NCBI RefSeq assembly: GCF_038025025.1
Contig: NW_027117342.1
Location: 2,294,001-2,358,000 of the forward strand
Source: Phyllosticta citribraziliensis
Taxonomy: Eukaryota
Direction: 5' to 3'
Length of the DNA stretch: 64,000 nucleotides
The notes under the pieces were generated by a model. The model was not told where the DNA came from and did no database searches. It was given only the letters and a program-made list of their open reading frames with translations. Of this stretch, positions 27,802 to 64,000 are shown piece by piece. Both the position numbers and the translations under genes were made by a program. The number at the start of each line of letters is the position of its first letter. Within the stretch, counting starts at the first letter, position 1.

Positions 27802-28997
27802 TATGGGGGGGACTAGCTACTTACTAATATACTTACTTAGCTAGCTAAAATGCTAGTACTAGTATGGGCGGGACTAGCTACTTACTAATATACTTACTTA
27901 GCCGGCCAAGATGCCAGCACTAGAAGAGGTATAAGAGATAGCAACTAGTAGTAAATGAGCAGGCTCTATAGGATAGGAATAAAATAACTACTAAACTAAC
28001 TAAAATAAGCTACTATCTGGCTATTACTTCATTATCTAAGCAGTATAAGACTTAGGTGTAAATAATAAGTATAAATAAATAAATAACTAAGTATTTAGTA
28101 GATAATAGTTTAACCTAGTATAAAAGACTTTATTTATATAAGTAGTGCCTCTTAATAAGCAGCTATAAAAGGGGGTATATAACTAGCTAATCTACTACTA
28201 AAAATACTAATAATATAAAGCCTCCTATTACTACTAAAGATGCTAGGTTTACTTATACTTTTATTAGCTATTATTATTACTACTAACCTATATAGAACTA
28301 TATCTTCCTAGTATTCTAGAGCTACCTATAGTCTTATTTTCCTACTAGCCTAATCTCCTACTCATATCTAAGCTAAAACCGCAACTAAGAATAAGAATGA
28401 TAACTACTAAAAGTAACCCTTAAAAGCTGCGAAAACCGTGCCGGCCAGTAGTACTATACTAGAAGAGGTATAAGAGATAGTAACTAGAGGTAAATAAGTA
28501 GGCTTTATAGGATAGGAATAAAATAACTACTAAACTAACTAAAATAAGCTACTACCTAGCTATTACTTTATTATCTAAGCAGTATAAGACTTAGGTATAA
28601 ATAATAGGTATAAATAAATAAATAACTAAGTATTTAGTAGATAATTATTTAACTAAGTATAAAAGACTTTATTTATATAAGTAGTACCTCTTAATAAGCA
28701 GCTATAAAAGGGGGTATATAACTAGCTAATCTACTACTAAAAATACTAATAATATAAAACCTCCTATTACTACTAAAGATGCTAAGTTTACTTATACTTT
28801 TATTAGCTATTATTATTACTACTAAACTATATAGAACTGTATCTTCCTAGTATTCTAGAGCTACCTATAGTCTTATTTTCTTACTAGCCTAATCTTCTAC
28901 TTATATCTAAGCTAAAACTACAGCTAAGAATAAGAATAATAATTGCTAAAAGTAACCCTTAAAAGCTATAAAAACCGTGCCAGCTAGTAGTACTATA
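27802..28997 (-). mobile_element. Family A solo LTR (outer), interrupted by a second family A solo LTR
   Basis: 27802-27862 plus 28463-28997 reconstitute the reverse complement of the 595-bp LTR at 40703-41297. Flanks are TTAG and CTAG. Confidence 0.9.
27863..28458 (-). mobile_element. Family A solo LTR (inner, 596 bp) with CTAG target-site duplication
   Basis: A complete LTR copy is flanked by CTAG at 27859-27862 and 28459-28462. It retains more C/G (gccggccaagatgccagcac) than the outer copy. Confidence 0.92.
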
Positions 28998-29001
28998 CTA
29001 G

Positions 29002-30788
29002 GAAGCTAGAATACTAAGTACTAGTATATATAATTACTAGATTTAAATTATAGCTATTTAGATAGTACTTCCTTATTAAAATAGACTATTATATCCTATA
29101 AGATTACTTAAATAGTAGGACTAAATCTATAATAGGTAGAGTCCTTAAGTAGTAGCTTAGCTAGCTATCTATATAGGATTTTAAGATACTATATATTACT
29201 AGAATAAAGAATAGGGTAGTAGATATACTATTAAAAAGGCTAAACTTTAAGGAGTTAAGTAAGGAAGACCTATAGAGATAGGTAGAGAAGATAGAAGATT
29301 AAATTAATAAGTTCTTATTATCCCTATAATTAAGTATATATATAGTTAGTTCTATAGACCTCCTACTAACTATCCCCTATACTAGGGGAGAGTTAATATT
29401 AGCTAATTAAATACTAGAGCTAGGCCCCTCTAGTCTATTAAGAGAGGTTATTCTATATAGAGTACTATATAAGAAGTACTCCTAAGAATTAGAGGACCTA
29501 GCTAAGTTTATTACCTATAGCCTATTTCTATCTAAAGTTAAGTAATTAGAGGCCTAGAAATAGTAATAGAAGGCCTATAGGTACTAGGTCTATAACTAGT
29601 ACTTATTTTAGTAATTATTAAAGAATATACTACTAAAATAAGTAGTAGATAATCCTACTACTTAAAAATAAATAGTATAATAACTATACTATAAATTTAG
29701 CTATTATACTAAGGAAGGAATATTTAGGAAAGTCTTAAATTAGTACTTTTAAGAAGGGCTATAGACTAAGTATAAGTAAGAATACTAAGATTATTAGACC
29801 TACTTATTTTATAGTTTATTATATAATAAGGAGGCCCTCTACCTATCCCTTAAGATACTAATCCTAGGTAATAAGTAGTATATAGATATTATCTATATAC
29901 CTAAGGGTTTCTATATTAATATATAAGAAGTAGTTTTTAGCTAGGTTAAAGAATAGATCCTATACTCTTTAAAAGCTACTCTAGTAGCTAACTTCTTATA
30001 TAAAGAGCTAATTTATTACTATAGTATATTTTAATATCTTATTATAGATAGAGGTAGTAAGAACCTAAGCTTTACTAAACTTATTATAGAGCTATATTAT
30101 ATATCTAAGATTAATATTTTAGTATACTACCTAGAGTTAAATAGTATAATTAAGAGAGGGTATAGGTAAATTAATAATATACTAGCTAAGCTATCTACTA
30201 GAGGTACTAAGCTCTAGAGACTATACTTTTATAGTATTCTATAGGTTAATAGGACTATAATTTATAGAATAACTAGAATAACTCCTATAGAGGTCTTATA
30301 TAGGAGAGACTATATACTCCCTATTAAAATAGAGATACCTATATAGTAGCTTATATTATAGTAAGATATAAAGAGTACTAGAGACCTACTAGCCTTATAA
30401 GTAAAGTAAATTAACTTATATAATAAGAAGCTCTAGGAGATTATACTATAAGTATATTACTTATAGGAATAGAATAAAGAATAGTTTAATAGCTACTATC
30501 TATAAGTTAGAGAAGTAATAGATAAGGGGTTTAATAAGAGAGATTAGGTACTACTCTATTATACTAAGCTTAAGGATAAGTATAATATAAAGCTTTACTT
30601 CTTTTAGAAAGGATTATTTAAAATCTATAAGGCTAATAGGGAAACTAGTACTTACTAGCTTAAAGAACTTAGTAAGAAAAGGTAGTAAATCTAGTTATAG
30701 GAGATAGGCTTAAGAAGTTTACTAGTAGGGATAAGGACCTAGTTAAAATAGTCTATTAGTAGGTTAACCTACTACTAAGAACTAGTAG
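29002..30788 (+). mobile_element. Family A internal fragment: RNase H C-terminus + integrase
   Basis: 29002-29539 aligns with ~47319-47859. Downstream de-RIP reads HVDIVHMP...LIVDGGSEN...SAYHPESNGMIERGH (DDE core). Confidence 0.85.
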
Positions 30789-33700
30789 TATTATAGTCTA
30801 TAGATAGTTAGAGATGCCTTAGGTAAGTAAGGTAGGTACTAGCTAGTAGGCTTAGTAGTATAAGTAAGTAGATAGAATAAGTAGGGCCCTAGGGCTAAGA
30901 TAGAAATAATAATAATATAATCCTTACTTAAGAAAAGATATCCTAACTAAACTTATAATATTTTCTAGTAGTTAAAAGTACTATAGTACTTCCTTTTACT
31001 ATAGTATCCCCTCTATATCTAGGACCTTTATTACTACTAATATATAAATACTATAAGTCTACTTCTACTAAAACCTAGAAAGATCCCCTTAAAATAGCTA
31101 ATAATATACTTCTATATAATACCTAGTAAGGATCTCCCTTCTTATATAACCTAGTACTAGTATTATTATAGTAGGACCTTTACTTCTATTATACTTACCC
31201 CTTCCTTTAATACTTAATACTAGTATAAGGAACTATCTATAATATAGTCCCTAAATAATAAGTTTACTATATTAATTTTAGAAGAGGATATATTATCTAT
31301 TTAATAATTTAAGGCCTTCCTCTATTATAGTAAATATAAATAATAGCTTAAATAGATTACTCTAATAATAAAGACTTATATTAACCTTATTATAGAAATA
31401 TTTAAGTCTTTAAATAATATAGGAGTATCTACTTAATAAACTATAACCTCTTAAAGGTATCTAGATTATCTAGTATACTAGGACTCTATAGGAGGTATAA
31501 ACTAGGCTACTTTCTAATAAGCCTTAGAATAAATTAATACTACCTATACTAAACTATTCCTAGAGAATTACCTAGTAGTTATAGAATAGGAATATATAGA
31601 AGAGGCTTTAGCTAAGGGTATAAGAACTATAATACTAAGTATATTAACCTCTATTAATATAATAGGTTTACTATTAAACCTAGTCCTAATTATACTATAT
31701 AAGGAGGTAGGCTAATATAATATAAGTATAGGATTAAGAGTATCCTAGTTCTTATATAATCTATTCTAGTATCTTTCTCTAACTATACTAGAATATCCTA
31801 TTATACTAAAGATATTAGCCCTAGATATAGTCCTTAAAGTACCTCTCTAGTTATAAGCTAAGATAATACTCTAGTTATCTTTAGGACCTACTATAATTAT
31901 CCTAGAAGTTATACTAGAATTAATCTAGAAACTATTAAAATCTACTCCTCTTACTAGTAGCTATACTATATCTAAATAGAAAAAGGGCTAATTAATTACC
32001 TATTTAGTAAATTTCCCCTCTTCTTAGGTATAAATACCTATTACCTTACTTTATAGATAACTTTAATTAAAATCTTTATACTATATATTAATTTATCTAT
32101 AACCTATACTATTTATAGAGCCTTAATAACCTATTTTATTAGTACCTATACTAACTTAAGGATACTTATCTTCTTTATATTACTCTACTTCTATATATAC
32201 CTATTAATAACTCTAGTTATAGATATATATAACTATAAGGCTATACTAGCCCTAAGATAAATAGGTAATACCTCTTTAAACTTCCTAACTAAAACCTTTT
32301 AAAGGAAAGTAGCTAGTTACCTATATTAATAGCCTACCTATAGATAATAAACTAGAATATAATCTATAAAATCCCTATTCTTTTATAGATAATAATTTTA
32401 AAGATTAATAGGTTCTACTAAACTTTAGTAAAGGTACTAGCTATACTTATAAAGGCTAGTTTAGATAACCTTTCTTCCTATCTAGCTATAGGCCTCCTTA
32501 TAGCTATTCTTACTAACCCTTTAATTAACTATCTAATATCTTTTAGAATAGTATAGGCCTAGATTTTATTTAGATCTCTAGCTAATATCTATATAATAGT
32601 CTTCCTTTCTCTAACTAATAGTTACTAGGAAACTAGAATCCTCCCCTAAGATATATATACTATAACTAGCTACCCCTATATAATATAATATTACTATATA
32701 TATATAACTAGTATAGTACTATAGACTAGATTAAGGAGATCTAATAGCCTATTATAACTTTAGAATCTTTAGGAGTAAAGCTAGATAAGCTTTAAAATAT
32801 ATTCTTTAAATAATAGAAAGTATAAATAGTAAATCTTACTATAATAAATAAGGGGGTTAATAAGTAACTTAAGAAGCTTAATATATACCTATCTATACTT
32901 AAGATAAGTATACTCTAAGATAGAGGTAAGGTATTATTAAGATTATTATAGCTATAAGAAGAGGACTATTTCTCTAATAAAAATTAGAGATAGAGATACT
33001 AGAAAAGGTATACCTAGTATAAGATAAAGAAGCTACTCCTATTAAACTTCTCTCCTTTTAAGAATAGGGATAAAGAGGATAAATAATCTACTATCTTTTA
33101 ATTTATTCCTTTATAAGATATAAGAGATAATAAGGAGTATAATTAAATCTTAGCCTTAGAATTATATATAAGGAGGATAACCCTATACTTCTATTTAAAT
33201 AATATTAGTTACTTTAACCCTAATCTACTAAAAGATAATATTAGCTATAGAGGTAGTATAACTAAATAAGAGAAAATCTTATACTATACTATAGAGTAGT
33301 TTATTAATAGTATCTTAATAACTTATACTACTTATAGAGTAGATCTAATCTATACTAACCTATAGAAGTACCTAAAAGGATTATTAAATATATAGTATAC
33401 CTCCTAACTTATAGAGGAAGACTAAGCTTTTATATATACTAGATATAGTATTAATAATTAGACTTTACTACTATATAAAGACTTTAGTATAATATAATAT
33501 AAGGCTATTAAAGTATTAAATAGAGTATACTTTAGGCTCCTAGAGATCTATACTAAAAGTATAAGGAACTTTATTATTACCTATATATATCTAGGATAAA
33601 TTACTAGTTTCTTTACTATATATAATTAGTTAGCTAATATCTATATATATATTAACCCTTACTTCTAGTAGTAGATCCCTAAACCTATAGTAAATACTAT

Positions 33701-40100: not shown

Positions 40101-40702
40101 AGATAATAATAATAGTAGTATATTAGAGATATATATAAGGGAGTATAATACTAATTATAGTAATAAGTATAAGTATAAGTACTTTACTACTAAAGAGTTA
40201 GAGGAGGATACTAAGGATAAAAGAATATAGATACCTACCTTCTTATTAGAAACTATATCTTAACCTAGTCTTACCCCTAATCTAGCTATAAGCCTTATTA
40301 CTCCTTATAATCTTAGTTTAATACTAACTCCCTATAACTTTAGTATAGTTAGAGTAACTCTATAAATTAAGGTAAGCTATAATATAGTAGATATTACTAA
40401 TATAGACCTCTAGGCCTAGAATTTAGCTATTAGAGAGTAAACTTACTACCTTATTAATACTTTCTATAATACTAATAAGATTATTATAACTATAATTTAA
40501 TATATACTCTAAGCTCCTAATAATAATATAGACTTAGAAAAGGAATTCCTAGATACCCTAATACTAAGGCTAAGAAAAGAAAAGGTAGAACCTAAGAGAC
40601 TAGCTATACTATAGAAGATAAAGAAAATAGGGAAGACTACTAGTATACTAAATATTACTATATAGTTAAAGAAACTAAGGGGCGCACCTAATATTATACT
40701 AG

Positions 40703-43700
40703 TATAGTACTACTAGCTGGCATAGTTTTTATAGCTTTTAATAGTTATTTTTAGCGATTATTATTCTTATTCTTAGCTATAGTTTTAGCTTAGATATAAG
40801 TAGAAGATTAGGCTAGTAAGAAAATAAGATTATAGGTAGCTCTAGAATACTAGGAAGATATAGTTCTATATAGTTTAGTAGTAATAATAATAGCTAATAA
40901 AAGTATAAGTAAACTTAGCACCTTTAGTAGTAATAGGAGGTTTTATATTATTAGTATTTTAATAGTAGATTAGCTAGTTATATACCCCCTTTTATAGCTG
41001 CTTATTAAGAGGTACTACTTATATAAATAAAGTCTTTTATACTTAGTTAAACTATTATCTACTAAATACTTAGTTATTTATTTATTTATACTTATTATTT
41101 ATACCTAAGTCTTATACTACTTAGATAATAAAGTAATAGCTAGATAGTAGCTTATTTTAATTAGTTTAGTAGTTATTTTATTCCTATCTTATAGAGTCTA
41201 CTTATTTACTATTAGTTACTATCTCTTATACCTCTCCTAGTACTAGTATTTTAGCTAGCTAAGTAAGTATATTAGTAAGTAGCTAGTTCTATCTATATTT
41301 TATAGTATAGCTTCTATAGAATAGGAGCTTACTATTACCTAATTATATAAATATATAATAGTAGTAGAAATTAGGTAAGTAAAAGGCTTTAAGATATTAC
41401 TAATAAGTACTATTAATTTTACCCTCCCTTACCTAGCCTATTATTATATATTTACTATACTAGTTATTACTATTATACTAGTATTTATTTACTTATTTAT
41501 TTTAGGTACTATTTTATAGATATTATATAAGCTATAAGATTAATATTTATAATTTTATAGTAGGATAGTATATACTTTATAGAATAATAATACTATACTA
41601 TTTAACTTTAGCTAGTTCTATTTTTATTAAGTATAATATTATTCTAGGTATTTCTACCTATAAAGTATAGGGGATAAGCCTAGATAGTTAATTCTATAGT
41701 TTTTATATAGTTATATTATAGATTTTAGATTATTAAGGCCTATTAAGTTTCTAGGACTATTCTTTTATATTATAAGGTTAGTAGTTTATATAATAAATTA
41801 TAAAGGTAGATTTAGATATAATTATATAATAAATTTAATAGCTAGCCTATAAGAACTATAAGTTCTTCTAGTAGATTAGGAAGAAATAGAAGAGGAGGAA
41901 GAAGTATATTAGAAGGAGATAAAGGAAAAGGATAATAATCTAGTTCTTATAGTAGTAGGTACTCTTTTAGGGGCTAGTAGTAGGGGCCTATAATTATTTA
42001 AGGAGGACTATTTATAGTACCTCTATTACTAGTAATTAGTACTTAAACTCCCTTATAAGGTATAGTACTAGCTATAGGTTTATTTAGACCTTTTACTAGG
42101 CTAGATATACCTCCTATAATTATACTACTATTAGGAATAGATAGTAATAAAATAATAGTATTAAGCTAAGCTAATTAATTAATACTAGATACTATAGAAA
42201 TAACTCTCCCCTAGTCTAGTAGGGAGTTATTAATACTAATAGAAGCTAACTAATACTATATAAGAATAGCCTCTCTAATATATATAATTTTAATAAGCTA
42301 GATACTAGTACTAAAGTAAAGGCTATAATTTAAGGGAGATAATATATTATTATTCCTAGAGATATATAAATACTTCTATACTATAGTTAGGAGTCTTCTA
42401 GAAGAGTTTATACTAAAGCTAGTTTAATATTATAAAACCCTAATTAACCTAGAAATCTACTATACTATTAAGTTTTAGACTAGAGACTAGGAAGGTCTAA
42501 AAGTTTAGATATTAGTATAATATAAGAACTAAGATACTAGTATAATTAATAGGAACTAGAGCTATATTAAGAACTTAGCTAAGAGATATAAGGACCTCTA
42601 TTACCCCTTTAAAATAGATAAGTTCTTTAGACTTTATAAGATACTTAGTAATAAGGTAATAAAAGAAGGATATATTAATAAAAGCTTATAAGAGATATAG
42701 TTCCTTAATACCCTATATATAAATATATAAACTAGGTTCTTATAAAAGGGGTATTTAGCCTATAGAGCTAGGAATATTTAGTATCTCTAGTTATATATTA
42801 AGACCTAACTAGAATATAAATAGTATATAGTATTATACTCTATAGACTTACTAGAGATTATAAATATAGTTATATACTATATTAAGGGGCTAGACTATAT
42901 TATAGACCCTATACTAATAAGGAGAGGATACCTTTTAAGGTCTCCTCTATTATTTATAATATTATCCTCTAATAGCTCTTCCTCTATAATTATAGCTTTA
43001 AGTAAATAATTAACCTCTAAGACTAGGACCCCTTTAGTAAAGAGTAATAATATTATAGTTAAAGACCTAGTAGATAAGCTAGCTAAGATATATATTAAAT
43101 TAATCTAGGAGGCTACTAGCTATATCTATAAATAGCTTATAGATAGTAAGAAGTATAGGTATATTATAAGTAGTAGGGACCTATATATAAGGGTTATCTA
43201 GTTATTATTTCCCTATAATAGCTCTATTAGAATAGGCTAGCTAGCTAGATAGTATATACTACTACTAGAATAGTATATTCTATAAATAGGTCCTAGTCTT
43301 CTACTAATAAGGCTACTACTATCTAGGATAGCTTTTATAGGCTAACCTTAATATAACCCTAACTCCTATAACTAGGTAAGACTAGCTAGTTTAAATATAA
43401 ATTAAAGTATAGAAATAGGGGAATACTAGAGTTATAATAAGATAGGCTATATAGTTAGGAGTTATCCTATTCTATTACTATTTATATATACTAGCCTTAT
43501 ATCTATTAGTTAAAATAGATATATCTAGGACTTTAATAGCTAGCTAATATTAACTTATAAGTAGAATAAATAGCTAGATATTAAGAAGTACTTATAGTAT
43601 TAGGGGTAGATAAATAATAATAATTTATTAAAAATACTACTAGTACTAGAATAATAAGTAACTCCTTACTAGACTAAGGGAGAGTTATTATCTTAATCTA

Positions 43701-46700
43701 TAATAAATAAAGAACTATATAGATATTAGCCCCTACTATAAATTAATACTAGATATAATATACCTTTAGACTATAGCTATTATAATTAAGACTAATATAA
43801 CTAGGACCTAAGCTAATATACTTAGATTAATTATACTTAGGCTAATATAGAGGATAGCTAGCCTTATTTCTATTAGATTTATTATTATAATAAAGGGGTA
43901 ATATATAGTATATACTATTTTAAGGCTAAAGTACCTTCTAGAAATATAATTTTTATAAATCTAATAAAGATTATAAAATATATAAGGAAGCTAAAGAAGC
44001 TAGCTAGGAGAAGAGGAGCTAAAATTTTATAAGCTATAATTAATAAAATAGCTATTAATAAATAAATTAGGAATATAGCTAAGTAGGTAATATCTAATAA
44101 GACTAGGAATATATCTAATAAGGATATTTTAAATATAACCCTACTAGTAAATATACCTTAATAGCTAAGGTAACTAGCTATTACTAGTCTACTAGATAAT
44201 AATATTAAAGAACCTACTATCTCTAGTAAAGAGCCTACTTAGGAGCCTAATATAGATAAACCTTAAAGAGTAATTATAGAAGATACTAATAAGGATATAT
44301 CTAATATTAAAGAAATCCTATAAAATAAACTAAGTATTATTCTTAAGGAATTAGAGAGTAATAAACTAGAGCTACTTAGTAAAGAGGCCCCCCCTAAGTA
44401 GTACTAGGTTAAAACTATTATATTTAGAGACCTATTCTATTATAAATAGTATAAACTAGGTCTAAATAGCTAGAGATATAGAGATATCTTTAATAAGGAG
44501 ACTATTAGGTATATAAAAGGAATCCTTAGCCTATATAATAATATATAGAAGTTATTTTATACTCTTATTAGTACTAAGATTATAGAAGAGGTCTAAGAAA
44601 TACTTTATAATAACCTATAGGTACTAAATAAATACCTATATATAATAGAGGACCTATAGAAGCTAATATATACTATATATATAGAATTAGTAGATAATAT
44701 TAAAGGGTACTAGTTTAACTCCTTTAATAAGCTAGTAGAATTTAACTTCTCCTAGTATTACCTATTTAAATAAGAAGATTATTTCCTAGATAGGATCTTT
44801 ATATATTTAAATATACTAACTAATATATTAGTTACTAAGGGTAAAACTATCTCTAGAGTTTTTAACTATATATATATAAGCCTAGTATATACTATAAAGT
44901 ATATACCTACTTAGAGCTTTATTTTATATAGGCCTAATAGTAAGCCCCTTTAGGATAGTAAGCCTATAGACCTATCTATATATAAGATATACTTTAGTAT
45001 TAAATTACTAAAAGGCTAGGAGGATTCTATAACTACTAGAGAAGATTATAAGCTAAAGCTAATAACTTATAAAGAGGTTATAATACTAGCTAAATAATAG
45101 GGCCTTATTATCTACTATATCCTATTATCCTTTATCCTAGTATCCTTTAGTAGCTATATAGTATAAGTACTAGTAGATACTAGAGTAAATATAAATAGTA
45201 TTTCTAAGGCCCTTATAGCTAAACTTAGTATCCTAGTTTAAGATATACTACCTAATAGTTTTAATATAACTATAGGATTTATAAATAGTTTAAAGTATAA
45301 AATTAAATAATAGATCCTAAGTTTAACTATTTAAATAGGAGGAGATTAGTCCTAGAGTACTTATTTCCTAGTATATAACTAAACTACTATCCTTATTATA
45401 TTAGGAATATCCTAGATTATCTTAGTAGGTAGTAAATTTAAAACTATACCTACTAGAGTAGTTAAATTAAGGTTTACCTACCCTATTAACCCTTACTACT
45501 ATATAGAAATTATTACCTACTAGGTATTCCTATTTATTAAAGGTATTAAAGATACTATATACTATATTAGCCCTATTAGAATCTAAAGTAGTAATAGTAT
45601 ATAAGTAGTAAGGCTAGGAAACTAGCTAGTATAATAATTTAGGGGCTAATTAGTATATAATTACTATACTAATTAGTAGGAGGCCTATATAATTAAAATA
45701 AATAAAATACTAAAAATACTAATTTAGTATTAGATAATATATTTTTAACTATATATATAATAGGAGAATAGAGTATTATTTATTATAGGGTATCTTAGTA
45801 TAGTATATTTCCTAATTATCTTAATACTATAGGATAATAAAACCTATACTAGTATATAGTATATAAATAAAAAGGTATAAAAATAGAGCCTATAGATAAC
45901 TTAATACTATAGGAAGAGTTATTAAATATAATTAAGGGGTAGAAGACTAAAGAGACTATAATTATTAAGTAAACTACTATACTAATAAGGGACTTCTAGG
46001 GCTAGAGATAATTTACCTACTTATTCTATTTAAGGATTATTATCTTTTAACTAGGTATATACCTTATATAGGAAAGGCTAGCTAGGCTTATTATTAGAGA
46101 TAACCTCTAGTTAAGAGAGTAGAAACTAATACTAGAAATATTATATAGTAGAAAAGGTACTATCTTATTTAACCTATTAGAAATAGGATAAATTAAGCTA
46201 ATAGTAATATATAGGTTCCCTATTAAGATAATACTATATAAGGCCTAGAGAATTAGAGTATTATATATTTTATAGGCTAAAATATAATATATATTTAACT
46301 TACTTACTACTTAGTAAGATATAGGAATTATTAAATACTACTCTAGTTAATATTATAATCCTTAGATAGTCTTACCTAAGAAAAATAGTATATATAGATA
46401 GATTAATAATTTATAAATACTAAATAATATTACTATTTAAGATACTAGTATACTAGGACTAATAGATAACTATATAGAATACTAGAGAGGCTTTATAATA
46501 TATACCCTTATAGACCTATACTCTAGTTTTAATTAATTTATAGTTACTAAAAAGTATTAGGATCTTACTAGATTTATTACTCTTTAAGGATACTAGTATA
46601 ACTATATACTTTCTTAAGGTATAATTAATTCTCTAGGATAAGTAGTTTATAGCCTAAGATATATACTAGATAACTAATAAGATAAGGCTAACCTTTTTAT

Positions 46701-49700
46701 AAATAATATTATAAGAGGCTAATAAAGGAGCTAATATAATAATATAGAAAGTATAGTAGTAGGAGTTAGGTAATTTATACTTAAGTATATCTAGGATATT
46801 AATAGTATATTATAAAATCTAAAACTAGTTAGACTTATAATCTTAGGGGAAAAGTCCTTCTTTAGTATACTAGAAGTTAAAGTTATTAGATTTAAATATA
46901 GAGAATTTAGATACCTACTTATTAAGTCTAAAGTAGGTAAGATTAATAATTAGAATACTTTCTAAGACCTTAAATTATTAAGGGGCTTCTTAGGAGTAAC
47001 TACCTATTTTTATTACTAGGTTAAAGAGTACTTATATAAGGTAGTACTACTATATACTCTAATAAGGAAGAATATACTATTTATTTAGAAAAATAAGTAT
47101 AATAAAGCTATAGCTAAAATTAAAGAAGCTATTATAATAGTACCTACCTTAGTATCTATTATATATAGAGAGGAGTCCCTAAGAGATATTATTATAGTTA
47201 TAAATAATAGTAGTATAGGATAGGGAGTAGTTTTAATATAAGAGAAGGATAGTACTAGATATCTAGTAAGATATAAGAGTAGTATTTAGTCTAGAATAGA
47301 ATTATTTTATAACTCTAAGAAGCTAGAATACTAAGTACTAGTATATATAATTATTAGATTTAAACTATAGCTATTTAAATAGTACTTCCTTATTAAGATA
47401 GACTATTATATCCTATAAGACTACTTAAATAGTAGGACTAAATTTATAATAGGTAGAGTCTTTAAGTAGTAGCTTAGCTAGCTATCTATATAGGATTTTA
47501 AGATACTATATATTACTAGGATAAAGAATAGGGTAGTAGATATATTATTAAGGAGGCTAAATTTTAAGGAGTTAAGTAAGAAAGACCTATAGAAATAGAT
47601 AGAGAAGATAGAAAATAAAATTAATAAGTTATTATTATCCTTATAGCTAAGTATATATATAATTAGTTCTATAAACCTCCTACTAACTATCTACTAGGCT
47701 AGGGGAGAGTTAATATTAGCTAATTAAATACTAGTACTAGGCCCCTCTAGCCTACTAGGAGAGGTTATTCTATATAAAGTACTATATAAGGAGTACTCCT
47801 AAGAATCTAAAGATCTAGCTAAATTTATTACTTATAGCCTACTCCTATCTAAAGTTAGCTATAGTTTAGAATATAATCCCTACCCTTAATAGGAGTCTTA
47901 CTACTCTATTTAGTATAGGTTATAGCTAGTATCTAGACCTTACTAATACCCTACTTAGTAAATTTAAGGCTACTAATAATTTAGTTACTAATAGCTCTCT
48001 CTTTAGCTTCTTAAATAATATATACTTTAAAATTAATAAGGAGTTTAGCTACTACCTCTAATACTAGTAGAAAATTAATACTTACTAAAATCTAGGCTAG
48101 AACTATATAATATTCTACTTACTAGTATAGTAGCTTATTTACTAGTACCTAGTATACTAGCTCCTATATATTTTACTTAGGCCTAATTATACTTACTAGC
48201 TCTATATAATACTATACTATATAAAGGACTAGAAGAAGGGTAACTATATTAAGTTCTACTACTTTAATATTAACTTAAATAACTATACTAATACTAATAG
48301 GGGTATTAATATAATTTAGGGTACTATCTCCCTTAATAGTAAGACTAATACTAACTATATAATTTTAGTAGAGGGCTTTATACCTTATTTTAAGGATTAT
48401 AGGGATAATACTATTACTAAGAAGGTATATAACCCTATAAATATAACTAATATTATTAATATTAAGAAGGGTCCTATTCTTAACTACCTTACTAAGTTTA
48501 TTAAAGATAGAGGCCTAAGTTAGTCTAATAATAAGGTAGTAGCCTATAGTACTAGGATTTTCTACCTAATAATACTATATAGAGCTAAGGGCCTAGTAAA
48601 GGGTATATATAAGATAATCTTCCTATAGTACTATAAAGTTAACTAGAACTATAATTATCTAGAAATTAATAAGATAGGTACTTAGGTAGAGCTAGTAGTA
48701 TACTATAAAAATTAGGTCCCTTTTAAGGTTATACCTACTAGTTTCCTATATATATATAGCTATTACCCCTATAAGTTTTTAGTATTAGTAGAGGTAGTTA
48801 GTATTAATCTAATTAATAATACTTTAGTCTACTCTTATTACTAGGACTCCCTATTAGTTATAAAGGAAGTTAAGAAGGTTATAAATATAGCTAGTAATTC
48901 TAAGGTATTAGTTAACTATTTCTATAATATAAAGCTAGATATAATTAATACCTATAATAAGCTATTCCTAGTCTTTATTAAAGAAGAGAGGTATATCTTT
49001 AGTAAAAAGTCCTACTTCTACTATAAGGATAATAATATTACTAGGCCTACTCCTAATAAGCCTCTATTAATTAATAAGGATATTATTAAAGCTATAGGTA
49101 TCTAGTACTATAATAAATATAGTAAGGATAAGGACTAGGGTAATATATTACCTACTAGCCTAGTTTATAAGAGTATATATAACCTAGATAAGTAGTATAC
49201 TAACTAGCTACTCTAATTTAGCCTCTTATAGACTATAGCTTATACTTTCTCTCTTACCTTTTATCCTTATTTCTTCTTACTTACTAAGGGATAGTAAAAT
49301 AAGGAGTACCCCCCTATATATAGTACTACTAGCTAGTATAGTTTTTATAGCTTTTAATAGTTACTTTTAGTAATTATTATTCTTATTCTTAGCTATAGTT
49401 TTAGCTTAGATATAAGTAGAAGATTAGACTAGTAAGAAAATAAGACTATAGGTAGCTCTAAAGTACTAGGAAGATATAGTTCTATATAGTTTAGTAGTAA
49501 TAATAATAGCTAATAAAAGTATAAGTAAACTTAGTACCTTTAGTAGTAATAGGAGGTTTTATATTATTAGTATTTTAGTAGTAGATTAGCTAGTTATATA
49601 CCCCCTTTTATAGCTACTTATTAAGAGGTACTACTTATATAAATAAAGTCTTTTATACTTAGTTAAGCTATTATCTACTAAATACTTAGTTATTTATTTA

Positions 49701-49913
49701 TTTATACTTATTATTTATACCTGAGTCTTATACTGCTTAGATAATAAAGTAATGGCTAGATAGTAGCTTATTTTAGTTAGTTTAGTAGTTATTTTATTCC
49801 TATCTTATAGAGTCTACTTATTTACTACTAGTTACTATCTCTTATACCTCTCCTAGTGCTAGTATTTTAGCCGGCTAAGTAAGTATATTAGTAAGTAGCT
49901 AGTTCTATCTATA
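40703..49913 (+). mobile_element. Family A Gypsy element, 9211 bp, two 595-bp LTRs (40703-41297, 49319-49913), CTAG TSD, integrase missing
   Basis: Direct LTRs with CTAG at 40699-40702 and 49914-49917. De-RIP motifs: protease ALVDTGAN (~45.17 kb), RT DLYSGFDQ and FVDDI (~46.5-46.7 kb), RNase H (~47.2-47.55 kb). Similarity to the 29 kb copy stops at ~47859. Confidence 0.92.
47860..49216 (+). pseudogene. RIP-inactivated PhyH-like 2OG-Fe(II) dioxygenase ORF inside family A element
   Basis: One frame (codon starts = 2 mod 3) de-RIPs to ...NLGW..MFHSLAQQLIRQHPAYWLLYVSLRPD...PYYAKD...FRHFD...GRGVNMIQGTISLDGE..DCT..VEGF...PHGAKGPA.GVRKTIFPWY...RWDSP. HxD falls at 48260-48268, the distal His at 48578 and an Arg at 48608. 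Ends are approximate. Confidence 0.7.
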
Positions 49914-51908
49914 CTAGATAAACTAGTAATAGTTAGTCCCTAAGGTAAAATAGAAGACTAGTTATTTATAAAGGAAAGTATATACTATCTATTCTATAAC
50001 CCTAAGACTTTTATAGAGTATAAATAGGACTAGGATACTATATTCCTTATAGATACTAGTAACTTTCCTATTATTAACTATATTTTAGATATATTTATTA
50101 AAGATTAGTACCTTCCCCTACCTAGTATAAGCCTATCCTCTATAATAATAGGTACCCTCTACTACTTAGCTTATTAAGTAATAATAGATCTAAAGTTCTA
50201 TAACCTCTACTAACTCTAGCTATTTTACTATAAAGATAGAGGACTAAACCTATATTATTACCCTAATAGATAGGCCTTATACTACTAAGATAAGGATAGT
50301 AAGATCTAGTATATAATACTTATAAGGTAGTATAGACTTATTAGTAGGGAAGGCTATAATAAGTATATTAGTAGGAAGAAGCCTAGTAACCCTAATATTA
50401 ATAAAATATACCTCTAGGTAATAGGAGGCCTTACTATCTATAATTATAATAGACTACTTTTCTCTATATATATAGATATCCTAGTCCCTAAGAGTATAAA
50501 GCAGCACCTTTATAAATAAGAAATATAGAATAGAGAAGGCTATTATACTCTTATAATAGACTATATAATAAGAGGTAATATACTACTAATAGAGCTCTAT
50601 ATATTTACTACTACCCTTATAAAAAATAGGAATAAGTAGTCTATAGGTACTAAGTTCTATACTCCTAGAGTAGGAGTAGGTTAGTACTAATATAATAGTC
50701 CTATTAATAATAATAAGGTAGAGCTTATAGAGATACTTTAAGATATACCCCCTCCTAATAAGGATATAATATTATAGGATATAAAACTTAAAGGCCTAGA
50801 TAAGCTTACTCTATAGGTTTACCTAGACTACCCTAACTATACTATATTTATAGTAGATACTAATAATACCCTACTTATAACTTAGGATAAGCTACTTTTA
50901 GCTAAACCTAATAATAATAGTAATAATATTAGTTCTAATACTAGTATAAAAGACCCCTTAATCCCTAATAATAGTCCTACTAACTATAGTAATATAGCTA
51001 ATACTAGTAAAGCTACTTCCCTAGGATACTTAGTAAACTATATAATCTATTAATATCCTAACTTAGGTAAAGTAGGCTCTCTCTACTAATATATAGACCT
51101 AATAGCTATACTCCTTATAATAGAACCTTACTAAGCTATATACCTTATTATTAGAGGAATTATCCCTAATAAGTTTATCTCTTATATAGTAGTTAAGAAC
51201 CTTACTTTCTATATAGGATTAAACTACCTAATCTAGTATATTAGAGAGGACCCTCTAAAATATATATAAATTACTAGGCTATTTACTTTATAGCTACTTA
51301 TACTATATATACTATAGGATATAGATAGTCTAGAGTAATAATTCCTAGGTACTAATATTAGGTTTACTAACTAGTTTATAGGCTATATTCCCTTAGGATA
51401 CCTTTATCCTAATTTCTATATAGATATAGGTATTACTATATATTATATACCTATACTAGGAGAGGATAAAAGTAGTTATAGTACTAATATATAGAAGAAC
51501 CTACTTATCTAGTTATTAGCCCTGCCTTATAATAATAATATAATAGGTAGTAAGGACTAGTTTAATATAGATAAAGATAGAGAGGCTAGTAACTAAATAT
51601 ATTCTAGTATAGACTTATTTCTTTCTTTCTTTACTTCTTTTCTTTCCTTTCTTATCCTAGAAGGGGGATATTTTATAATAGATAGAGGAGGATAGTAAAT
51701 TTTAAGTTAAGGATAACTCCTTTTTTTAGCTACTACTATTATAGTCTATAGATAGTTAGGGACACCTTAGGTAAGTAAGGCAGGTACTAGCTAATAGGCT
51801 TAGAAGTATAAGTAAGTAGATAGAATAAGTAGGGCCCTAGGGCCAAGATAGAAATAATAATAATATAATCCTTACTTAAGAAAAGACATCCTAACTAAAC
51901 TTATAACA

Positions 51909-54900
51909 TTATATAACTAAGCTATACCCTATAATTAGACTAATTAGGCCTTAGCTAAGTAGGATATCCTACCTAATAAGCTAGAAGAGCTAGAGGAAAC
52001 TATCTTATATAATAATACTTATACTAAGAAAAAGGGAAAAGGAAAGGGAAAGAAGTAAAGTAAATAGATAGTAGAGAATAGTTCTAAGTAGTAAAAAGGA
52101 GAGACTAGAGAGTAGAAGTTAAGGTTAATAGTATTTATATAAGGGTAGATAGTAAACTAATTAGTCTACTTTCTATATCTTTATAATATTTATTTTAGAC
52201 CTAAGTAACTTATTTTTTTATTACTTATTATTTAGGGCTATTCTTATAGGAAGGTAGTCTTCTATTTTTCTAGATTTTTAGGTAGTCCTACTACTATTAG
52301 GTAGGAAGAGTAGAACTCTTTAATTCTCTATAGTATACTACTAAAAGAACTTATATTATACTACTAATTATCTTAATTATATCTAGTCTATTATACTTAA
52401 TATTAAAGTTTTCTATATAAGACTTAGCTAGCTTAAATATAGTCTACTTCCTATTTAGGCTTATCTTAAATAATCTTAAGTTCTAGTTTAGTATACTCCT
52501 AACTAGGAAGTTTCTCTATTAAGGCTTTATAGAGTCTATTAGTATAGAAAAGATTAACTATCTTTATATATAAGGGAAGGTTAAGGATATATAAAGGTCC
52601 TTATATCCTTAAAATCTAGAAAGGTCTAGTATTTAGAAAGTCTAATTTTAGGTTTAGCTAGTTAGTAGACTATCCTATTTTCTTAATATAAATATAATCT
52701 CTAACTATAAAGTCTAGTATATAATAGTATTTATTAGCTTATTAGTATATATACTCTTAAGATTTAAGAATAAGGTTCTTAGTAAACTTAAAAGCTTCTT
52801 ATCTTCTTTTTTATAGTATTTATACTACTATATAAGCTATTTTCTCTAGAGCCTAAGGAATCTCTATTTATTATTACTAATTATAATATATTTATAGGGA
52901 ATATCCTAATTTAATCTTAAAGGGGGAAAGTCTAGTAGCTTTATAAGGAAGTATTACTTATATAAGGTCTATAGAGGGTAGAAGGCCTAACTAGTTATTC
53001 TAGAAATAGTTAATAAAAGGTCTTAGCCTTTATATAAGGTACTAATTAATAATTTCTATAATACTATTAGTTTAAGAGTAATATAAGGAGTTAAAATACT
53101 ATTTAATACTAGTAAGCTTATATAGTCTATTTATAAATATAGAGATAAACTATAGGCCTTAGTTAGAAAGGATAGACTTAGGATTTCTATAGATATAGTA
53201 GATATACTTATAGAAGAGTCTTAAGACTTCTTTAGTATTAATCTTCTTTATATAAGGTAAACTAAAGGTCTATTAACTTAACTACTCTACTATAACTAAG
53301 ATTATATTATAGCCCTTTTAATTCTTAGGTATTTTTTAAAAATCTATAGCTAAGTATTACTAGGGATAAGTAGGAATCTTAAGAGGTTATAAAAGGCCTA
53401 GATCCTTATTATAAAATTCTTTAGTTTAATAATAGATATAGTATCCTTATCTATAAATATCTATTATATAATATATAGTAGGCTAATAGTAATATTATTT
53501 AAAGAGTTTATATATTTTTATAATACTAGGGTATATAGTTATATATATAGTATATAAAGTATTAAGAGTTCTTATATAGAGGTTATCTTAATCTAGTATA
53601 AAGAGAGTACTATATTATAATAAGAGACTATCCTTTAGTTCCTAACTATTTCTTTATTCTAGGTCTTTTTATTAAGTTTATTATCTCTAGAGTTTAGATT
53701 AAGGATCTTCTCTATTTATATAGAGAAGTTTATCTAAAAATAGTACTAGAGGTAGAAGGTCTTATTCTATAACTAAGAGAGGGATAATAGTTTCTAGAAG
53801 AATAAGGTATATCTCTTATATAGCTTTTATCTTTTCTTTCTAAGTCTTTAGGTCCTCTTATTTTCTAGTAAGATAATTAGTAATAATATTTTCCTTTTCT
53901 AGTTAGTAGGAGAATTATATATAGAATTTAGTAAAGAATTTAGACTATCTAGCCTATTATTAGTTAAGTTATTATTTTATAGAGTAATACTCTAGTACTT
54001 AATAGTCTATAATTATAAGAAAAGGGTTTTTAAGGCTAATAAGTATAGGTCTCTATTCTTCTAGCCTATTCTTAATAGCTAATAGTTCTTTATCTAAGAT
54101 ACTATAGTAAAGTTCTATATAAGCTATTACTTTAGAGTAGAAGGCTACTAGTTTCTATTTATATAAAGGTTTTTAGAGCTATATTAGAATACTAGTAGTA
54201 ACTCTATTACTTATATCTATCTCTATATAAGTATTAAGAGTAGGATTATAGTTTATAAAGAGTATATTACTATATATAAGCTTCTTAAATTCTTAGATTA
54301 CCTCTTCTTCTAGTAGTCCTAGTTATTACTATTTTATCTTAAAGTATAGCTTCTCTAATAGCTAGCTAATCTATCTATAGTTAAGAAGAAATTATTAATA
54401 GAAATTATAGAAACCTAAGAAGGATTAAAGAGCCTATAGAGTTTTAGGTACTAGCTAGTTTTATATAGGTTCTACCTTATTAGGATCTATTTAAATACTA
54501 TCTATAGATATAATATATCTAAGAAACTTTATATAAGTAATAGAAAATTTACTCTTTTTAAGATCTATCTAAAGTCCTACTTTCTATAGTCTTACTAGTA
54601 CTTTCTTTACTTATTCCTTATATTCTATAGGGTCTTTAGAGATAATAAGTATATTATCTATAAAAGCTACTATAAAATTATCTAAATACTTAAAGAGAAC
54701 TTAATTAATAAATTATTAAAAGGCTATAGGTCTATTACTTAATCTAAATAGAAGGATATAGTATTTAAATAAGCTATACCTTATATAAAAAGTAGTCTTA
54801 TTTTCTAAGTTTAGTATAAGTTAAATATAGTAGAAAGCTTATTAAATATCTAGCTTTATATAAATTTTACCCTTTCTAATATACTAAAGTAACTCTAAAA

Positions 54901-61301: not shown

Positions 61302-64000
61302 TATCACGACTCGCAGATTTCTTGTTATACAGGTAAGGGCTAAAGGTGAACTGCTAGAGAATACATATATATCTTAATTAAATCTAATAAGTTAAAAGAA
61401 TAAAATATAAAAGATACTTACTACCTATATATTTCCTAGTCCTTCCTTTATACTATTCTACCTCTTATCCTTTATATAAGGGTCCTTGGTTATTATTAGG
61501 TGAGTTATAAAGGTAAGGTGTTAATAGGCTGTTATATAGTATCTACCTAGGGCTGTAGTGGCTAGTACCAGGCTATAGTAGCTAGTACTAGCCTATAGGT
61601 TTCAGCCTAAGCTGTAGTAGGCTGCTACCTAAGGTGAGGCTTGTGCTTCTTATAACTGCGCGATACTAGGTTTGTCTATACTGGCCCTAGTACTTATATA
61701 GGTATATATACGCCTATTATGACATGCCCCCCCTAAAGAGAAGCTAAAATTATAGGAATTAGCAGCTGTAGGCGCTTGCGCAGGTATAGACTTGTGATAT
61801 ATAATAGTAGTAATTTGGCAATTTAAGCGTTCTATATAGTTATAAAGTATAATTATTAGTCTAGGGCTACTACTATACTATCTCTTTTTCTATTACTATC
61901 TCTTTTGCCGCGTGACCTATAGAAGGTTACTATCTTACTTAGCTATATCTAAAGCTCCCTATTAAAGTATGTTGTTACCCCAGTCTAATTTAGCTATAAT
62001 CTAGTAAACTAACTATTACGCGTAAAGGTTCTAATAATTTAAATAATTTATACCCTACTAATAGTAAAGCAGATATTCCTAGCTGCTGTATACTTAATAC
62101 ATCTACTACTTATTATGGTCTAGTCTGTTAGGACTTATTACTATTATATAAGAGTTATAGTATTAAGTTATTATTATGCGGCGTTATTCGCGATCTATTG
62201 CAGTTACTACTTACTTAAAGAGCTGTTTTAGCTAGCAGTATCTATAAGGACTATTATATAGAGTCCTAAGGTAAGTAAACTTTAATTCTATCTCTAACTA
62301 TTACTAATTATTATCTAGGCTATCAAGTAGCATTATATATCTAGGTTTTACTACTTTATCATCCTATCTTGCCAACTAATATAATTATAGAGGAGGACAC
62401 TTATATAAAGACTTAGTCAGGCTAGGCTTTACTTATTTAGCTAGGAATAGCTATAGGCTTATTACTTTACCTATAGTATACTATAGTATTAGGTTCTACT
62501 TAATCAGCATTATTAGTTATCGCGCGAGGTTTATCATCTATAGCTATACAGCCTACTACTAACTAGCCTATTATACTATATCACTACTGGTTCGCTATTG
62601 CACAGCCTGTTTTAGAGGAAGAAGGTAAAGAGCCTACTTATATATACTATTATTATAATCCTGTAGCTTATCAGGTTCTAGCAGCTAAGTACTTACTGCC
62701 TGCTGCTTTATATAATAGCAGTAATAGTAAGATTCGCGTTATAGTGTCACTAGTTAGCTCTAATAAGGCACCTATTAAGTAGGACTTTAAGTCAATACTT
62801 TACATCCCTTATAAGAATATAGAGAGTGTCGCGCGAGTAAGTTTATCTTACTAATATAAGGGATTCTTATCTAACTAATTATATAGGTGCGCCTTAGTAG
62901 TTCTAAAGTACAAGAGCGCGCTAAATATATCTTGGCCTTAGGTAATAGTATACCTTACTTATATATTATAGTTTCTACTTAGCAATTTAACTACTTATTA
63001 GTTAAAACTTAAGCTAGCTTGCGCGATACTTTTCTTATCTAGTATACTAGAATTAATAACCCTGTCAGCTATACTAAGTATTATAATAATACTAATACTT
63101 ATGTGTTTATTAGTTATTACTACCTGCCTAGTTTCTTATAGGGCCGCTGTACTAACTACCTTTAAGGTACAGGCAACCTTAACTATACTATAAGTGACTT
63201 AAAGGGTGCCAAGCCGCCTACTTATTATAAGAGGCATGAAGATAAAATTTATATAGAGGAGTTCTAGAACTTGCGCTACTAAGCTAGGGTAGAGGATTAA
63301 ACTAATTAGGCTTTAGCTAAATAGGACATCCTACCTAATAAGCTAGAAGATCTAGAGGAGACTATCTTATATAATAATAGTTATAATAAGAAGAAGGGAA
63401 AAGGATAGAAGTAAAGGGTAGAAAGTAAAGAAGAGGGAAGTAGGGAATAAGTAGTAAAAAGAAGAGACTAGAGAGTAGAAGTTAAGGTTAATAGTATTTA
63501 TATAAGGGTAGATAGTAAACTAATTAGTCTACTTTCTATATCTTTATAATATTTACTATAGGCCTAAGTGACTTGTTTTATTATTACTTTCTATTTTAAT
63601 CTATAGTTCTTCTTAGAGGAAGGCAGTCTTCTATTTTTCTAGATTTTTTAGTAGTCCTGCTATAGTAGGGTGTAATGAGTGGAATTCTTTAATTTTCTAT
63701 AGTACACTACTAAAAGAACTTATATTATACTACTAGTTATCTTAGTCATATCTAGTCTATTTAACTTAGTATTAAAGCTTTCTATATAAGACTTGACTAG
63801 CTTAAATATGGTCTACTTCCTACTTAGGCTCGTCTTAAATAATCTTAGGTTCTAGTTTAGTATATTCTTAACTAGGAAGCTGTTCTATTTCAGCCTTATA
63901 TAGCCTATTAGTATAGAAAAGGTTGACCATCTTTATATATAAGGGAAGATTAAGGATGTAGAAGGGTCCTTCTATTCCTATAATCTTAAAAGGTCTAGTA
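61302..64000 (-). mobile_element. Second, less-RIPed family D element: 423-bp 3' LTR (61302-61724), PPT, accessory gene, chromodomain/integrase end; continues past window
   Basis: T(A)TCACGAC...TATGACA termini. The adjacent tgccccccctaaagagaag is a PPT on minus. Homologous to 51940-52630. Confidence 0.88.
61945..63414 (+). pseudogene. Antisense, intron-containing accessory gene of family D with DUF3716-like Cys cluster
   Basis: Intron-like segments 61967-62027 (GTATGT..CTAAC..AAG), 62271-62318 (GTAAGT..CTAAT..TAG) and 62837-62886 (GTAAGT..CTAAC..TAG). The last exon de-RIPs to C-A-K-C...F-I-G-C..LPGF..G-R-C-A-N-C...C with a KKKGKGRK* tail. Confidence 0.68.

Follow-up and report, generated by a model that had tools for sequence, protein, structure and literature searches.

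A predicted PhyH-like dioxygenase gene in fungal Ty3/Gypsy retrotransposons and its remnant in Phyllosticta citribraziliensis

Why would a reading frame that resembles a dioxygenase lie just upstream of the 3′ long terminal repeat (LTR) of a heavily mutated retrotransposon? The question is raised by a segment at positions 47860-49216 of a 64,000-nucleotide stretch of the Phyllosticta citribraziliensis genome (contig NW_027117342.1, positions 2,294,001 to 2,358,000), hereafter called the window, to which all coordinates refer unless a locus name is given. An initial annotation, made from the letters alone, proposed that this segment is a retroelement gene for a PhyH-like 2-oxoglutarate (2OG)/Fe(II) dioxygenase that had been degraded by repeat-induced point mutation (RIP). 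We find that the segment is very probably the 3′ half of a third open reading frame (ORF3) of a fungal Ty3/Gypsy lineage, carried by an element copy that was internally deleted and then RIPped.

A gene remnant in RIPped DNA

The identity of the remnant is established by its homologues. A phmmer comparison with 1.84e9 representative proteins gave 157 matches at E<=1e-3, including 23 at E<=1e-10 (best 6.5e-21). Among the 150 matches listed, 46 are at least 730 amino acids (aa) long, and the similarity falls in their C-terminal ~330 aa. A family hidden Markov model (HMM; profile length 863) was built from these 46 long homologues and run over the six frames of the window. It recognizes a single place, 47957-49060, where profile positions 458-823 align with 95.8 bits and an independent E-value (i-E) of 7.7e-31. 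The remnant covers the 3′ 42% of the gene, and the N-terminal 457 profile positions have no match anywhere in the 64-kb window.

The first 22,000 nucleotides (nt) of the window are GC-rich (50-63% GC), whereas GC content is 22-32% from there on and this low-GC block carries RIP at saturation. Within 47860-49216, TpA/ApT is 1.98 and (CpA+TpG)/(ApC+GpT) is 0.0, compared with 0.55 and 1.27 in the GC-rich part. The initial annotation noted a single open phase whose stops are all TAA or TAG, and took the latter as a sign of RIP. The open phase is real: between 47957 and 49060, the frame with codon start mod 3 = 2 is interrupted by 18 stops over 368 codons, against 29-81 in each of the other five and 32.3 +/- 5.3 (minimum 17) in mononucleotide shuffles. 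The choice of stop codons, however, is uninformative because TGA occurs in none of the frames on either strand, CpA and TpG having been exhausted.

The skewed composition of RIPped DNA might by itself produce an open-looking frame where no gene had ever been. That all frames end only in TAA and TAG, for trivial reasons, would fit such an origin, as would the behavior of the raw translation (stops as X), which yields no Pfam family for 47801-49216 or 48101-49198 and no phmmer match among PDB sequences. The database homologues and the family HMM match refute this explanation, and so does the pattern of substitutions. At the 63 columns that are conserved in at least 90% of the 46 non-RIPped rows, the window sequence is identical at 25, and reversing C>T or G>A changes alone restores the conserved residue at 53. 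Random pairing restores 11.8 +/- 3.0 (maximum 23 in 2000 trials). We therefore regard the chance that no gene remnant exists as negligible.

Alignment to intact homologues also bears out the H-x-D...H...R arrangement that had been proposed by reversing RIP-type changes. The catalytic codons now read TAC at 48260 (H>Y), AAT at 48266 (D>N), TAT at 48578 (distal H>Y) and TAT at 48608 (R>Y), and the changes at all four positions are RIP-type transitions. The PHG motif had been misplaced: the family PHG aligns with L-Y-R at ~48575-48583, and the P-Y-K at ~48734 belongs to a different, non-catalytic column. Judged by its sequence, the window copy is dead, with neither the element nor the enzyme functional.

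Similar sequences occur in the same species and in other sequence data. The nearest match from a named organism is a 51-aa partial protein of P. citribraziliensis, RIP-like in its own right, that shares 88% identity with the remnant. Sequences from four runs (coded organisms A to D) were compared with the window. All are contigs, so that their depth is not read as copy number, nor are uncovered bins taken as evidence. Each run has contigs over portions of the ORF3 remnant, and these differ from it chiefly by A>G and T>C. Within the window, no other copy of 47858-49318 scores above background. The best alignment, to 29541-31100, reaches 81 bits, and the background is 79 +/- 18 bits (maximum 132 in 86 comparisons).

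ORF3 in intact Gypsy elements

Intact relatives reveal the setting from which the remnant might derive. Metagenome contigs were scanned with a 12-sequence family alignment, and 80 loci were fetched of 183 confirmed relatives. One element family, with a repeat unit of ~10.5 kb, accounts for 36 of these loci, two of which (L018 and L019) are intact and 34 RIP-like. The intact elements are arranged as LTR, gag-protease, a pol encoding reverse transcriptase, RNase H and integrase, ORF3, and LTR. Both have a GC content of 0.51-0.52 and normal RIP indices. The L019 LTRs are 279 nt long and 99.6% identical, and those of L018 are 100% identical over the available 127 nt. In contrast, the RIP-like copies have a GC content of 0.35-0.41 and TpA/ApT of 1.38-1.72, with no ORF of at least 200 aa in those checked.

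In L018 and L019, ORF1 (1014-1059 aa) carries an aspartyl protease at its end, and ORF2 (1202-1214 aa) carries RVT_1, RT_RNaseH, Integrase_H2C2 and rve domains along with a weak SH3_Tf2-1 match. ORF3 is 986 and 988 aa long, respectively, and is a full-length family member in which FRHIDVN, PHG, RRTMLPW and CDC are present. Its frame closes 58 nt (L018) and 50 nt (L019) before the 3′ LTR. The initial annotation had held that a family lacking HxD...H or a double-stranded beta-helix would speak against a dioxygenase, and had asked whether homologues in other fungi lie between Gypsy pol and a 3′ LTR. None of the outcomes that it had named as refuting occurred. HxD...H and the arginine are kept in the transposon ORF3s, as are FRHID.N, PHG, RRT.LPW and CxC. 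Such homologues do occupy the place between Gypsy pol and a 3′ LTR, where they form an intact third ORF of their own that is under purifying selection.

The selection is apparent from the ratio of nonsynonymous to synonymous substitution rates (dN/dS) between L018 and L019, which is 0.197 for gag-protease, 0.086 for pol and 0.083 for ORF3. The two halves of ORF3 give 0.094 and 0.075. We take these sequence comparisons to show that young, amplifying Gypsy elements hold ORF3 as a conserved gene and that purifying selection constrains it as strongly as pol.

Outside the L018 family there are 44 loci, of which 14 have a context that can be judged and 30 have too short a flank. A Gypsy pol lies directly upstream on the same strand in L017, L026 and L037. 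In a further locus, L044, the contig has overlapping ends and wraps around, with ORF3 after a 2,168-aa gag-pol. ORF3 is intact in L044 and L037, and L017 and L026 are RIPped versions with an equal layout. Between L018 and L044, pol is 46% identical and the C-terminal part of ORF3 is 43% identical, and thus the association between Gypsy elements and ORF3 is either old or recurrent. Six L018-family elements are flanked by 4-bp duplications (ATAG or CTAC), and the window element also has a 4-bp duplication.

One locus, L060:8371-12047, is an L018-type deletion derivative that retains an LTR piece, spacer, a full-length RIPped ORF3 and an LTR and has no gag or pol. L060, L035 and L080 share a 9.1-kb stretch around this derivative that is 90-92% identical.

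Family members also occur in other settings, often in transposon-rich DNA: the other ten judged loci, L001 among them, have no Gypsy pol in at least 3 kb of upstream sequence. At L001:6410-12816, the dioxygenase gene lies in a 6.4-kb unit bounded by inverted repeats of 72 nt that are 91.7% identical and by a GAAGA duplication (5 bp). An rva_4 integrase-core ORF (E 2.3e-10) and a 405-aa ORF lie in the same unit, and the latter also precedes the dioxygenase gene in L002 (73% identical). From its sequence features, this unit looks like a terminal inverted repeat (TIR) DNA transposon that carries the dioxygenase gene. At L064:12640-17034 (minus strand), L014:4884-6917 (minus) and L009:6629-8501 (plus), the dioxygenase gene is followed by related DEAD/Helicase_C proteins that are 24-34% identical; the L064 helicase has an OrsD domain too. 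No Gypsy pol is nearby at these three loci, though the upstream flank is too short to judge in two. The dioxygenase and helicase genes may be a recurrent pair or may mark another carrier element. A Helitron-like Rep/PIF1 helicase (L034:11839-16962, minus) and a DDE_1 transposase (L034:3992-4795, minus) adjoin another family member that has no upstream Gypsy pol.

Anatomy and origin of the window copy

The remnant resides in a Ty3/Gypsy element of 9,211 bp at 40703-49913, which is RIPped and very probably internally deleted. All of its parts are on the plus strand. The initial annotation had described an LTR element flanked by a target-site duplication, and every component of that description is present. 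Window self-comparison pairs a 5′ LTR at 40703-41297 with a 3′ LTR at 49319-49913 (96.47% identical over 595 nt); the 5′ LTR starts with TATAG and ends with CTATA, consistent with RIPped TG...CA. The same four nucleotides, CTAG, can be read before the 5′ LTR (40699-40702) and directly after the 3′ LTR (49914-49917). In run X1, an empty-site contig passes from 40694 straight to 49910, with 8 ambiguous letters. The empty site is precise because the 9,215 nt skipped equal the 9,211-nt element plus one 4-nt duplication.

The interior begins with a leader and a presumed gag-protease region (41298-46023), placed by position alone and without homology from Pfam or phmmer; relatives have their gag-protease ORF of 1014-1059 aa here. 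RIPped pol sequence for reverse transcriptase and RNase H follows at 46024-47559 (codon start mod 3 = 1), and corresponds to aa 179-693 of the ~1,210-aa L018 and L019 pol proteins (phmmer 156-158 bits, i-E 3e-49 to 5e-50). When the element interior is translated in three frames with stops as X, Pfam recognizes RT_RNaseH alone (E 0.0015). A pol linker at 47560-47857 then leads to a breakpoint at about aa 757 of the 1214-aa L018 pol, before Integrase_H2C2 at aa 794-849. The segment had been described as lying between pol and the 3′ LTR; pol, however, does not end ahead of it but is broken off at 47857, upstream of the zinc-binding domain of the integrase. With respect to pol domain order, reverse transcriptase and RNase H are recognized, integrase is absent from the element and protease is unrecognizable.

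Immediately after the junction, at 47858-47956, the ORF3 frame is already open; these bases are not aligned by the family HMM, whose envelope starts from ~47906. The aligned remnant at 47957-49060 represents the C-terminal part of the dioxygenase module (L018 ORF3 aa 557-893). It is followed at 49061-49286 by a poorly conserved C-terminal tail of ORF3, in a frame that stays comparatively open to ~49216, and by a short 3′ untranslated stretch. The polypurine tract, AGGGATAGTAAAATAAGGAG, can be read directly at 49287-49306, 12 nt upstream of the 3′ LTR.

Elsewhere in the window, a second pol fragment of the same repeat family (family A) has kept its integrase. This fragment (28973-30670, plus strand) matches L018 pol aa 604-1131 with 112-115 bits by phmmer, and RIPped integrase motifs are readable in its portion from 29465 to 30670 (pol aa 729-1131). 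Two family-A LTR copies on the minus strand, at 27859-28458 and 28452-29001, lie head to tail, are 91-95% identical to the LTRs of the element and abut this fragment where it starts at ~28973. A separate pair of direct repeats, 51934-52524 and 63296-63893, lies 11.36 kb apart with 84-94% identity and suggests a second large LTR element, although neither the pol queries nor the dioxygenase HMM match it.

Comparison of the two pol fragments locates the junction precisely. Positions 47315-47857 are 91.9% identical to 28998-29540, and past these points there is no similarity above background. After 47857, the second copy continues into integrase, whereas the element copy continues with ORF3 from about aa 557 (L018 numbering). 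A single ~3-kb deletion accounts for both sides of the junction as well as for the change of frame. We infer that the window copy descends by deletion from an ancestor that bore ORF3. In elements of the ORF3-bearing lineage, the gene follows pol and ends 50-60 nt short of the 3′ LTR. The window copy inserted as a unit with a 4-bp duplication. An internal deletion would have removed the integrase, the inter-ORF spacer and the N-terminal half of ORF3, and RIP would later have mutated the deleted copy to saturation.

The same junction could also have arisen if a family-A element had switched template to the mRNA of an ordinary host gene of the dioxygenase family, such that the 3′ half of that gene replaced the integrase independently of the ORF3-bearing lineage. 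We consider a one-off capture of this type unlikely. It is suggested by the junction between pol and ORF3, which is out of frame (codon start mod 3 changes from 1 to 2) and lies inside both coding regions. It is also suggested by the existence of the family outside Gypsy elements and by the fact that Gypsy-borne members do not form one clade. However, the order, strand and spacing to the 3′ LTR match those of five other Gypsy families that have the whole gene, and one deletion suffices to explain the two sides of the junction. The duplication of 4 bp and the resemblance in pol likewise fit ORF3-bearing elements, and RIP is saturating and uniform over the ORF3 fragment, the flanking pol and the LTRs.

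Other copies bear on the same point. Record 8 of run X1 bridges the ORF3 tail and the LTR over 48771-49409 at ~94.5% identity (35 other letters and 2 gaps in ~638 nt) and then diverges. This indicates another copy with an equal ORF3-tail-to-LTR junction, which argues against a one-off capture. Two further records, X5 record 16 and X8 record 30, align from 47856 onward. The letters left unaligned ahead of that point (8 and 21, respectively) are too few for bridging and hint only weakly at copies whose upstream neighbor differs.

Given that nested repeats form a mosaic in the AT-rich part of the window, and that L001 has the family within a TIR-bounded unit with its own integrase-core ORF, a different mobile element might have carried the gene into the family-A integrase and later have been trimmed by deletions. 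Between 47858 and the polypurine tract, however, there are no inverted repeats, second duplication or other foreign sequence, and ORF3 runs directly into the polypurine tract and an LTR spacing that is normal for intact Gypsy elements. Such a nested insertion would need at least two extra events, and we judge it to be very improbable, even more so than a capture.

Several observations weigh against a deletion in an ORF3-bearing ancestor. In the 64 kb of contig sequence analysed, every family-A copy is incomplete, and phmmer searches of the window with the L018, L019 and L044 gag-protease sequences gave nothing at E<=1e-3. The presence of ORF3 in every fetched copy follows from the design of the scan, as the loci were found through ORF3 itself. 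At 10 loci, at least 3 kb of upstream sequence is free of Gypsy pol, as might be expected if the window's lineage had captured the gene independently. Gypsy-borne ORF3s are scattered over the family tree, where starred branches force at least three label changes. The window sequence cannot be placed in this tree, as it has an end branch of 4.73 and falls among other RIPped rows, probably because of their shared composition. The original idea of a retroelement-encoded enzyme holds for the intact Gypsy relatives, whereas the window itself retains only the 3′ part of the gene in an element that has lost its integrase, and the family is not confined to Gypsy elements.

Predicted fold, possible function and known systems

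The remnant belongs to a Pezizomycotina-wide family of ~900-aa proteins (~900-1080 aa in the Gypsy elements) whose C-terminal ~500 aa are predicted, from homology and structure modelling, to form a PhyH/DUF1479-like Fe(II)/2OG dioxygenase. In Coccidioides, Sclerotinia, Rhinocladiella, Penicillium, Aspergillus, Xylona and lichen fungi, among others, its members carry no annotation beyond 'hypothetical protein'. Across the 46 long homologues (P0001 numbering), H593, H693 and R703 never vary, and at least 90% have D595. A CxC...CxxH motif (C347, C349, C386 and H389), invariant in all 46, directly precedes the dioxygenase module at P0001 aa 345-390. It matches no Pfam CxC family and may be a zinc site. 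Pfam PhyH (PF05721) matches 14 of the 46 at E<=0.01 (best E 1e-8), and no other Pfam family matches. When this model was tested singly on 13 homologues, P0026 (24.0 bits) exceeded the 22-bit cut-off and four fell just under it; the L018 ORF3 scores 17 bits.

An AlphaFold2 model of the domain-only homologue P0026, made with 69 sequences, has a mean predicted local distance difference test (pLDDT) score of 91.4. The modelled domain folds as a double-stranded beta-helix similar to those of PhyH/DUF1479 proteins, as had been proposed. The best Foldseek matches are EvdMO1 and the DUF1479 proteins YPO2976, YbiU and JW0805, accompanied by AviO1, EctD, proline hydroxylase, CurA halogenase, GriE and SnoN. 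In a VIA-align structure comparison with 48,161 chains, from which the best 50 rows were considered, YbiU (4rgk) gives Z 13.8 with a root-mean-square deviation of 2.8 over 218 aa, and Candida albicans GIG2 (6akz) gives Z 13.7 over 221 aa. ColD (Z 10.6), human PHYH (Z 8.4) and PHYHD1 (Z 7.7) score lower. The initial annotation had called for comparison with AlkB and TET/JBP as well as PhyH. The fold agrees with PhyH/DUF1479, whereas AlkB, TET and JBP are not among the Foldseek matches listed or the best 50 VIA-align rows, an absence that does not exclude any of these families. No JmjC chain is present among those 50 rows either.

The full-length P0001 model (pLDDT 81.3) comprises a helical N-terminal domain at ~aa 16-215, a disordered linker at 218-341 and a compact module at ~345-857 whose alignment to DUF1479 chains spans 392-435 columns. 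The predicted models show no membrane or fusion features. A profile of 69 homologues compared with PDB sequences gave chance helical matches only and no dioxygenase. For the domain, 27 of 30 ESM Atlas feature matches fall in one PhyH set (score 0.91), which is a lead only, and the N-terminal 220 aa have no usable match there. A search for fused pol-dioxygenase proteins longer than 1540 aa found none, which is weak evidence.

We infer that the ORF3 product may be an active Fe(II)/2OG hydroxylase or demethylase that acts on some macromolecule to the benefit of the element. The nearest solved folds are small-molecule and amino-acid hydroxylases; an action on macromolecules would be in keeping with the CxC...CxxH motif and the N-terminal domain. 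It is conceivable, as a tentative proposal, that ORF3 encodes a counter-defence enzyme that oxidizes methylated or otherwise marked DNA, element RNA, a histone or a silencing protein, and that it thereby helps the element escape RIP, DNA methylation or heterochromatin. A PhyH/DUF1479-like dioxygenase would then have been recruited repeatedly by transposon classes of Pezizomycotina (Gypsy elements and at least one TIR DNA transposon), and silencing would be escaped for long enough that the element could amplify. Pezizomycotina have the most aggressive fungal repeat defence, RIP. The window copy is a dead relic, and the interest lies in the element lineage: intact natural ORF3 sequences exist, and what a retrotransposon gains from a PhyH-like hydroxylase is therefore directly testable. 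The link to transposons also gives a context to the 'hypothetical protein' members of the family in named genomes.

Accessory enzymes that have become fixed in LTR retrotransposons are rare. A search of the open literature, which did not extend to Repbase or subscription journals, turned up no description of a PhyH-like ORF in fungal LTR elements, and we consider ORF3 to be a new instance of transposon-borne 2OG dioxygenases. The DUF1479/GIG2 literature yielded nothing useful on function. The best structural matches, namely YbiU/YPO2976/JW0805, GIG2 and PhyH (PF05721), have in common with the ORF3 family the HxD...H triad and the arginine, at a sequence identity of 12-14%. The ORF3 family additionally has a helical domain of ~200 aa at its N terminus, then a disordered linker (~120 aa) and the CxC...CxxH motif. 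In addition, the solved relatives are free-standing cellular proteins, whereas members of the ORF3 family are found in transposons. With regard to position, errantiviruses, which are also Ty3/Gypsy elements, carry an env-like third ORF between pol and the 3′ LTR. ORF3 occupies an equal place, although its predicted product is an enzyme rather than an envelope glycoprotein.

The closest precedents are other element-borne oxygenases. Ty3/Gypsy elements of Phalaenopsis orchids have an extra ORF for an AlkB-type 2OG-dependent dioxygenase that demethylates N6-methyladenosine in RNA in vitro (PMC9289625). Like the ORF3 elements, these are Gypsy-type elements with an added Fe(II)/2OG-oxygenase ORF, fixed in a lineage of large elements. 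The hosts are plants instead of Pezizomycotina, the enzyme is AlkB rather than PhyH/DUF1479-like, and activity has been demonstrated in vitro for the orchid protein (PMC9289625), whereas that of ORF3 is predicted. In fungi, TET/JBP dioxygenases ride DNA transposons of the Kyakuja-Dileera-Zisupton, hAT, Harbinger, IS3EU, EnSpm and Helitron groups (PMC12730594). They resemble the ORF3 family in being a recurrent 2OG-Fe(II) dioxygenase cargo across transposon classes, which for ORF3 are Gypsy and one TIR element. The ORF3 family differs in that it is PhyH/DUF1479-like and is carried by LTR retrotransposons of RIP-proficient Pezizomycotina. Both precedents point to a contest over nucleic-acid methylation (PMC9289625, PMC12730594). 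A third, unrelated 2OG-dioxygenase family now joins them as a conserved gene of recently active Gypsy elements. If the tentative counter-defence role is correct, ORF3 would be to ascomycete retrotransposons what TET/JBP is to the DNA transposons of basidiomycetes and AlkB to the Gypsy elements of orchids.

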